Part shown: in pieces, positions 36,605 through 37,532 of the stretch | Numbering within the stretch: the first letter of the stretch is position 1 | Layout: each line of letters starts with the position of its first letter | Source: Naegleria gruberi | Taxonomy: Eukaryota | NCBI GenBank assembly: GCA_000004985.1 | Contig: GG738846.1 | Reading direction: 5' to 3' (one strand) | DNA length: 64,000 nt | Made by a program: the position numbers and the translations under genes | Notes under the pieces: generated by a model | Seen by the model: the letters and a program-made list of their open reading frames with translations, nothing else | Told to the model about the DNA's origin: nothing | Databases searched by the model: none

Positions 36605-37532
36605 ATGAATCAATCGAATGCCTATCACTATATGTTTAAATTTATAATTATTGGAGATTCTGGTGTCGGAAAATCCTGTATTCTGTTACAATTTACTGAC
36701 GACAGGTTTGATGCCAGATCCGAATGTACAATAGGTGTAGAATTTGGAACAAAAACCATTGATCTCGGATCAAAATATAATCACTTGAAAATCAAGACAC
36801 AAATATGGGATACAGCTGGTCAAGAAGGTAAGTAGAAAGATTTAAAAATTTAATTGACCAACACTAATGAAAAGCTTTTAGATCGTATGTAGAAATGATT
36901 TTATTTGTTATTAATTAATAATTGATTTATTTAATATGGTGGATTTGTTTTTGAAATTGTAAAATAGTATTGCAAGATCGTAGGTTTTAATTTGATATTT
37001 ATTATTAAAATTCAATGTATGGATTTTGAATAGTTATTATCGTGGATCTGCTTGTGCTTTTTTAGTTTATGATATTACGAGAAGGAGTACTTTTCAATCA
37101 GTTCAAACGTGGTTAACTGATGCTCTCAGCAACAGTTCAAATCATTCCCAATTGGTTGTTGTTCTCGTTGGAAACAAGTCTGATTTAAAATCTCAAAGAC
37201 AAGTTTCATATAAGGAAGGTTTAGAATTTGCAGAAAAGAATAACATTCACATATTTATGGAAACATCAGCAAAAACAGCAGAAAATATACACAAATCATT
37301 TTATGAAAGTGCAGAGATAATTTATAGAAAGGTTTTAAATCATGAAATAATGGTTGGATTTGATGATGATGTTGTTGGTTCTGGTGTTAAGGGTGGAGTG
37401 CTTTTGGCCAACCAACAATCGAATATGTCCACAACCCCTTCGAATACAAATCGAGTGAGAGGAAGTGATTTAGCAAATCAAACCTCTCCTCAAAAAACAG
37501 AAAAGAAAGAAGGGTGTTGTGGTGGAAAGTAA
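36605..37532 (+). CDS. Rab4/Rab14-like small GTPase. Four exons: 36605-36827, 36875-36884 (10 nt), 36968-36979 (12 nt), 37034-37532. C-terminal CCGGK.
   Basis: Exon 1 reads ...[20 protein letters not shown]...[32 protein letters not shown] and ends before GTAAGT. Micro-exon A is CTTTTAGATC (AG acceptor, GTATGT donor) and micro-exon B is TATTGCAAGATC (AG acceptor, GTAGGT donor). The last exon begins T TAT TAT CGT GGA. The splice restores a perfect switch [29 protein letters not shown] (compare Rab4 [27 protein letters not shown]). Without the micro-exons, the RabF/switch II residues are missing. Confidence 0.65.

Follow-up and report, generated by a model that had tools for sequence, protein, structure and literature searches.

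How does a Rab gene whose two long reading frames leave out switch II come to encode a complete GTPase? The question is posed by a locus of Naegleria gruberi within a 64,000-nucleotide (nt) stretch of contig GG738846.1 (GenBank assembly GCA_000004985.1), which was analyzed as a whole and is called the window below. The Rab gene starts with ATG at position 36605 and ends with a TAA stop codon at 37530-37532. Its two long open reading frame (ORF) blocks lie in different frames with 206 bases between them, the first ending with ..WDTAGQEGK at a stop codon and the second beginning with ..NSYYRGSAC, so that neither holds the residues between WDTAGQE and YYRG, as an initial annotation of this DNA had pointed out. 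That annotation attributed switch II to two micro-exons, one of 10 nt and one of 12 nt. Comparative evidence strongly supports this proposal, and we put at roughly 0.88 the probability that the real coding structure of the gene consists of four exons, with switch II supplied by the two micro-exons.

Coding structure across switch II

Joining the four exons listed in Table 1 yields a coding sequence of 744 nt that is in frame, free of stops and translated into 247 amino acids (aa). Exon 1 encodes G1 GDSGVGKS, switch I/RabF1 TIGVEF, RabF2 KTQIW, G3 WDTAGQE and the first base of the Ala75 codon, its 3' end reading ..CAAGAAG^GTAAGT at 36827 (a caret marks a splice junction throughout). Micro-exon 1 completes the Ala75 codon with two bases, encodes Phe76 and Arg77 and opens the Ser78 codon with two more, i.e. 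(A)FR(S); micro-exon 2 completes Ser78 with one base, encodes Ile79, Ala80 and Arg81 and opens the Ser82 codon with two bases, i.e. (S)IAR(S). Taken with the split codons, their 22 bases give AFRSIARS, and exon 4 continues with RabF4 YYRGS, RabF5 LVYDIT, G4 GNKSD, G5 ETSAK, the hypervariable tail and the C-terminal CCGGK prenylation motif. The 10-nt exon leads from phase 1 to phase 2 and the 12-nt exon from phase 2 to phase 2, keeping the frame, and the spliced junctions would read ...CAAGAAG^CTTTTAGATC^TATTGCAAGATC^TTATTATCG. Both micro-exons are internal coding exons of 15 nt or less with a canonical acceptor and donor; the coordinates and sequences that the initial annotation gave for exons, micro-exons and junctions all matched, and the AG acceptors and strong donors (GTATGT, GTAGGT) that it described are seen in the DNA. 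In addition, intron 1 contains a branch-like CTAAT motif 7 nt 5' of its acceptor AG, and introns 2 and 3 lie in the identical context AGATC^gt..ag^T. Only the removal of all three short introns allows the gene to encode a complete Rab.

The best database match of the gene is a "rab family small GTPase" of N. gruberi (P0001; XP_002682728.1, EFC49984.1, UniProt D2UZR9; 241 aa). This protein is reproduced exactly by exons 36605-36831 and 37034-37532, i.e. by a single 202-nt intron (36832-37033) whose donor, GTAGAA, lies 4 nt downstream of the GTAAGT donor and preserves the frame, with the junction ...GGTCAAGAAGGTAA^TTATTATCGTGG. The exact match identifies the window as DNA of N. gruberi NEG-M. 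As the initial annotation had anticipated of gene callers, this public model skips both micro-exons. Aligned to its relatives, it reads QEG, a gap of six positions and NYYRG where they carry QEAFRSIARSYYRG; six switch II residues are gone and RabF3 is deleted. The match to the Pfam Ras profile (PF00071), which for the micro-exon model covers profile positions 1-160 of 162, drops by 21 bits, from 187.0 to 165.7 bits. The string diagnostic of micro-exon splicing is GGTCAAGAAGCTTTTAGATCTATTGCAAGATCTTATTATCGTGG, that of public-model splicing GGTCAAGAAGGTAATTATTATCGTGG.

Within 36790-37075, every combination of one, two or three GT/GC-AG introns no shorter than 20 nt was enumerated, and the models that stay in frame and free of stops were ranked by BLOSUM62 on the corresponding segment of the N. 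fowleri orthologue. This gave 142 models, the public single-intron model among them, and the statement of the initial annotation that the two blocks can only be joined in frame through the tiny exons was therefore too strong. The micro-exon model was the unique best, scoring 151 compared with 127 for the runner-up and 100 for the public model, and it was the sole gap-free model colinear with the orthologue. Among the 142, the micro-exon model alone restores a complete switch II. As a control, the intron interior was shuffled 400 times with dinucleotide composition preserved and the best attainable score was recorded for each shuffle. These scores had a mean of 110.8, a standard deviation of 5.3 and a maximum of 128, placing the observed score about 7.5 standard deviations above the mean with none of the 400 shuffles reaching it. 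The micro-exon match is far beyond chance expectation.

The corresponding stretch was read at the DNA level in N. fowleri (protein P0002, locus L001), N. lovaniensis (P0121, L025) and a Naegleria-type metagenome contig (P0003, L002). In all three relatives (A/T)FRSIARSYYR sits in one uninterrupted exon; N. fowleri and N. lovaniensis carry the same AFRSIARS as N. gruberi, and L002 carries TFRSIARS. Over the eight codons supplied by the micro-exons, N. gruberi and L002 are separated by four synonymous codon changes and one non-synonymous change (Ala to Thr), while 6 nt differences separate N. gruberi from N. fowleri and 6 from N. lovaniensis, all of them synonymous. Such synonymous-only divergence indicates coding constraint on a stretch that the public model calls intron. 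Across 36 aligned Rab2-type proteins F76, S78 and R81 are invariant, and R77, I79 and S82 are at least 90% conserved.

The window also offers a measure of local intron style. Six other candidate introns, defined by a GT[AG]NGT donor and an AG acceptor with 70 or more open codons to either side, are 42-86 nt long, have GTAAGT, GTATGT or GTAGGT donors and end in acceptors such as AATAG, TTTAG or TAAAG. The three Rab introns (47, 83 and 54 nt) fit this pattern in length and donors, and the 202-nt intron with its GTAGAA donor falls outside it. In N. lovaniensis the median intron length is reported as 80 bp (PMC6125883).

Given these data, it is very improbable that the public model represents the real and only mRNA, in which case the protein would be a Rab whose switch II is shortened to QEGNYYRG, and the segments resembling micro-exons would owe their presence within the 202-nt intron to chance or be relics of recent date. 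This model is the one deposited by JGI/NCBI, it is in frame and it obeys the GT-AG rules; however, the shuffles exclude chance, and relics would not retain both acceptors, both strong donors, the right phases and a purely synonymous divergence from N. fowleri. Its donor and intron length are atypical of the window, it deletes the three invariant and the three highly conserved residues named above, and it lowers the Pfam score.

Several observations weigh against the four-exon structure. The exact 247-aa protein is not found among approximately 15 billion public protein sequences, and a 149-aa query centred on switch II retrieved only the public model and distant Rab2s, with no transcript-derived fragment among them. 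The six comparison introns of the window are candidates deduced from ORF logic alone, and the exon flank on the donor side is ATC^GT at both micro-exons as opposed to the usual AAG^GT at several of the other candidate introns. Moreover, no other species examined has the same micro-exon structure, and the cross-species support covers the encoded residues only. Metagenome contigs were scanned for a closer relative in which conservation of the micro-exons could be tested, but the best match was 47% identical and none was usable.

Table 1. Exons, introns and splice sites of the Rab gene, followed by its neighbours, in window coordinates
Feature	Position	Strand	Description
Exon 1	36605..36827	+	223 nt, ends in phase 1; from the sequence, a tblastn match (36605-36829) and the Pfam Ras match
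Intron 1	36828..36874	+	47 nt, GTAAGT...AAAAG
Alternative weak donor GTAGAA	36832..36837	+	donor of the public 241-aa model
Micro-exon 1 (candidate)	36875..36884	+	10 nt, CTTTTAGATC; AG before, GTATGT after
Intron 2	36885..36967	+	83 nt, GTATGT...AAATAG; phase 2 in the Ser78 codon, context AGATC^gt..ag^T
Micro-exon 2 (candidate)	36968..36979	+	12 nt, TATTGCAAGATC; AG before, GTAGGT after
Intron 3	36980..37033	+	54 nt, GTAGGT...GAATAG; phase 2 in the Ser82 codon
Exon 4	37034..37532	+	499 nt including TAA, starts after AG; from the sequence, Pfam and a tblastn match (36996-37529)
Pyridine-nucleotide-disulphide oxidoreductase	31683-33182	minus	
NOP2/RsmB-type ribosomal RNA methyltransferase	34252-36360	plus	long acidic N-terminus; ends 245 nt before the Rab ATG
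PDCD5/TFAR19-type double-stranded DNA-binding protein	37649-38103	minus	acidic D/E tail; Pfam PF01984, 52.5 bits; converging downstream gene
TPR / APC3-like protein	38170-39582	minus	
421-aa ORF	40108-41373	minus	no Pfam match

Placement of the protein among Rabs and its orthologues

The translation of the four-exon model contains the G1-G5 motifs, including GDSGVGKS, T42 and ETSAK, which align with those of solved Rabs. The RabF motifs of Pereira-Leal and Seabra reportedly resemble IGVDF, KLQIW, RFRSIT, YYRGA and LVYDIT, and all five are present here as IGVEF, KTQIW, AFRSIA, YYRGS and LVYDIT. The protein ends with ...EGCCGGK, a double-cysteine motif of the CCXXX type that predicts prenylation. 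Among solved structures the best matches were Rab2A and Rab2B (PDB 1Z0A, 2A5J; 207 and 203 bits) and Drosophila Rab2 (4RKE; 202 bits), followed by Rab14 (1Z0F; 196-198 bits), Rab4A (2BMD; 183 bits), Rab4B (176 bits) and Rab11 (about 160 bits). The initial annotation had suggested looking for a gap in switch II in an alignment of this kind, and those to the solved Rab2A, Rab2B, Drosophila Rab2 and Rab14 structures pass through switch II without one.

Identity, measured over 175 well-aligned columns with reference sequences verified against the PDB chains, was 61% to Rab2A, 57% to Rab14, 50% to Rab4A and 47% to Rab11A, and among the named database matches of the protein nearly all are Rab2. With Rab2 the protein shares LLQFTD.RF, (E/A)FRSI.RSYYRG, GNKSDL and METSAKTA, and strings such as METSAKTA side with Rab2 and not with Rab14 or Rab4. 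The switch II of RAB4A and RAB14, FR(S/A)(V/I)TRSYYRG, is nearly the same as that of the Naegleria protein; these two belong to the same Rab supergroup IV (Rab2/4/11/14; PMC3425129), but they read LLHQF.EKKF (LLHQFIEKKF in Rab4A) where the Naegleria protein has LLQFTDDRF. Neighbour-joining trees were built over the same columns from a small sample that held four Naegleria-type sequences, two of Rab14 and only one of Rab4. Of 300 bootstrap replicates, 199 placed the Naegleria clade with Rab2, which amounts to only 66% support, and 54 placed it with Rab14 and/or Rab4. On the strength of bit scores, identities and motif strings, we call the predicted product a divergent Rab2-type protein within the Rab2/4/11/14 supergroup. 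The label "Rab4-like" of the initial annotation holds at the supergroup level only, as Rab4A gave both the lowest bit score and the lowest identity when compared with Rab2A and Rab14. N. gruberi is listed with Rab2, Rab4, Rab11 and Rab14 by Klöpper et al. (PMC3425129, Additional file 1), and the accession XP_002682728.1 is not listed in the supplements of two Rab surveys.

The divergence from canonical Rab2 is considerable. At 54-61% identity the Naegleria protein is about as distant from it as Rab14 is (53-57%); it has a 4-residue insertion in the beta2-beta3 loop (SKYNH region), reads YYRGSAC where Rab2 has YYRGAAG, and ends, unlike canonical Rab2, in a tail of roughly 65 residues closing with CCGGK. 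Such divergence might be expected of a decaying pseudogene copy of a Rab2-type gene, for which neither model would yield a functional protein, but the probability of this is close to nil. The frame is intact over 247 codons with all G1-G5 and RabF motifs and the CC prenylation tail, the distinctive SKYNH insertion and YYRGSAC recur in the orthologues of the three other Naegleria-type genomes, and no second copy of the gene was found within the window.

Among these orthologues, those of N. fowleri (FDP41_005814, XP_044559774.1) and N. lovaniensis (C9374_011333) are 78% identical to the N. gruberi protein overall and 86% over the GTPase core, with the AFRSIARS of switch II and the Naegleria-specific insertion identical. 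Some of the deposited sequences have peculiarities of their own. The L002 protein (P0003; ENA contig k141_167337, 440-475 and 626-667) in its deposited form reads through introns of 36 and 42 nt and renders in-frame TAG codons as Q (VSLFEEQYNQEQ, VSVSFELNFDCVDQ), an artefact that comes from calling genes on a eukaryotic contig in prokaryote style or with an alternative code; properly spliced, it is a clean orthologue with 77% identity. The public N. lovaniensis protein XP_044554502.1 (401 aa; L025 2560-2810) seems over-extended: the straight ORF ends with ...SSSTCCTGSRRESGE at its stop codon, matching ...STCACAGSRRETGE at the stop in N. fowleri, and the public protein splices out a 196-nt intron and gains approximately 139 residues unrelated to Rab. 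Finally, in N. fowleri (L001 4250-4290) and N. lovaniensis (L025 2570-2615) nine conserved residues, (A/T)GSRRE(T/S)GE, come after the pair of C-terminal cysteines (CAC / CC), while N. gruberi ends with CCGGK and L002 with CCGGGK. An extension of nine residues past the prenylation cysteines is unusual for a Rab and may reflect a missed short 3' intron or a genuinely odd tail.

Intron history and gene surroundings

Exact splice maps were compared between the N. gruberi gene, its orthologues in N. fowleri, N. lovaniensis and L002, and the Rab2 genes of a sponge, a mite and Anaeramoeba. N. fowleri and N. lovaniensis have introns in common at GVGK^SC (phase 0), WDT^A (phase 1) and GNKT^D (phase 1), and L002 has introns at GVGK^S and Q^E (phase 0). 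N. gruberi lacks the P-loop and G4 introns, i.e. the first and third of the N. fowleri and N. lovaniensis orthologues, and has E-A(G^CT), FRS(TC^T) and ARS(TC^T) instead. An intron at FRS^I or ARS^Y was found in none of the other six genes, and its absence from those of sponge, mite and Anaeramoeba speaks against ancient shared intron positions. Since the three Naegleria-type lineages are roughly equidistant (75-78% identity), the simpler reading is that the two introns that form the micro-exons were gained in the N. gruberi lineage, with loss elsewhere as the alternative.

The intron next to G3 occupies three places within 13 nt in the three Naegleria-type lineages (window 36815-36830; L001 3285-3440; L025 1809-1945; L002 608-670). 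In N. fowleri and N. lovaniensis it lies at ACA G^CT, in phase 1 of Ala71; in L002 at CAG^GAA, in phase 0 between Q and E; and in N. gruberi at GAA G^CT, in phase 1 of Ala75. The mite Rab2 gene has WDT^AGQE in phase 0 and that of Anaeramoeba W^DT. These positions look like intron sliding or like repeated gain and loss at a hotspot.

Introns 2 and 3 could be recent gains of the N. gruberi lineage alone, both inserted at AGATC^T (phase 2, in a Ser codon that follows Arg) and inside the protein's most conserved motif, next to an intron whose position differs among the three Naegleria lineages. The locus might then be a natural example of site-directed intron gain or transposition, e.g. by reverse splicing into a look-alike site, with rapid intron turnover within the genus, and the tandem 10- and 12-nt exons would be a by-product. 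We regard this scenario as doubtful, if conceivable. No positive sign of an introner or duplication origin was seen: the pairwise similarity of the introns lies within the shuffle range, and searches of the window for other copies of the Rab introns gave nothing beyond 15-nt chance matches. The 5' ends of introns 1 and 2 (36828-36845 and 36885-36902) read GTAAGTAGAAA-GATTT and GTATGTAGAAATGATTT, with 16 of 17 bases identical; the local alignment score of the two introns, 22 compared with a shuffle mean of 16.9 and maximum of 27, is not significant alone.

The surroundings of the Rab gene (31683-36360 and 38170-41373; Table 1) form a compact gene neighbourhood. The PDCD5-like gene that converges on it is found in two ORF pieces (38103-37954 and 37900-37649), and the gap of approximately 53 nt between them is probably another short intron. 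No ORF of at least 90 aa lies on the strand opposite the Rab gene, and an Rfam scan of 36300-37900 gave no match inside the Rab introns. At 37631-37718 on the minus strand there are sub-threshold C/D-box matches to SNORD11B (24.7 bits, gathering threshold 50) and snoR79 (24.2 bits, gathering threshold 80), which fall on the (GAT)n repeat encoding the acidic tail of the PDCD5-like protein and are almost certainly chance hits to TGATGA-like repeats.

Probable splicing of the micro-exons and consequences for the Naegleria gene set

In the four-exon structure, removal of the three GT-AG introns would join segments of 223, 10, 12 and 499 nt, and the AFRSIARS so assembled would provide the RabF3 motif as well as the N-terminal portion of the switch II helix. 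Rabs depend on this region to change conformation with the bound nucleotide and to bind exchange factors, GTPase-activating proteins and effectors. The resulting protein is expected to be a Rab2-type GTP/GDP switch that is prenylated and associated with membranes. Splice sites of such short introns are presumably paired across the introns (intron definition), and the introns flanking the micro-exons are probably removed one after another because an exon of 10 or 12 nt is too short for two spliceosomes at once. For plant micro-exons, too, it has been argued that the introns on either side leave one after another or with a delay (PMC8831610).

Skipping of both micro-exons from the true GTAAGT donor would shift the frame, and the weak donor 4 nt downstream would keep it, which is probably why an automated caller chose the public model. 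The same arrangement, GTAAGT followed by AG with its second, frame-keeping GT, raises the possibility that both forms are made, inclusion of the micro-exons giving the functional Rab and use of the downstream donor with both skipped giving an in-frame isoform without switch II that is perhaps inactive or regulatory. Exon skipping and intron retention are reported in N. gruberi transcriptomes generally (PMC6142364), but nothing specific to the Rab gene speaks for a second form, the GTAGAA donor is weak, and a single in-frame alternative among 142 joins is unsurprising; we therefore consider it improbable that the gene makes both.

The four-exon Rab gene has its closest parallel in plant micro-exons of 15 nt or less (Yu et al. 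2022, PMC8831610), e.g. the 9-nt micro-exon of the AP2 domain, which likewise are internal, code for the central part of a conserved domain motif and have strong splice signals on both sides. They too are routinely missing from reference annotations, with defective predicted proteins as the result. The N. gruberi case differs in that it occurs in a heterolobosean protist with very short introns and in that its two micro-exons lie back to back and are lineage-specific, with no ancient conservation. A search of the literature on Naegleria micro-exons found no relevant paper. Public XP_002682728.1 is very probably a missed-micro-exon annotation error of an already known kind, and no new type of system is involved; what sets the locus slightly apart is that its two micro-exons are neighbours, are specific to one lineage and fall within the motif most conserved among Rabs.

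The entry D2UZR9 / XP_002682728.1, which is also part of EukProt, is very probably wrong in its functional core, and its users in Rab phylogenetics, motif surveys and structure modelling inherit a 6-residue deletion in switch II. More broadly, the locus indicates that the 2010 Naegleria gene set can conceal exons of 15 nt or less and argues for a micro-exon-aware re-annotation with existing RNA sequencing data, for which an N. gruberi project is available (PRJEB23822 at ENA; PMC6142364). For the biology of the genus, it provides a small, clean data point on intron gain and loss, with positions that differ between Naegleria species inside a very conserved motif.

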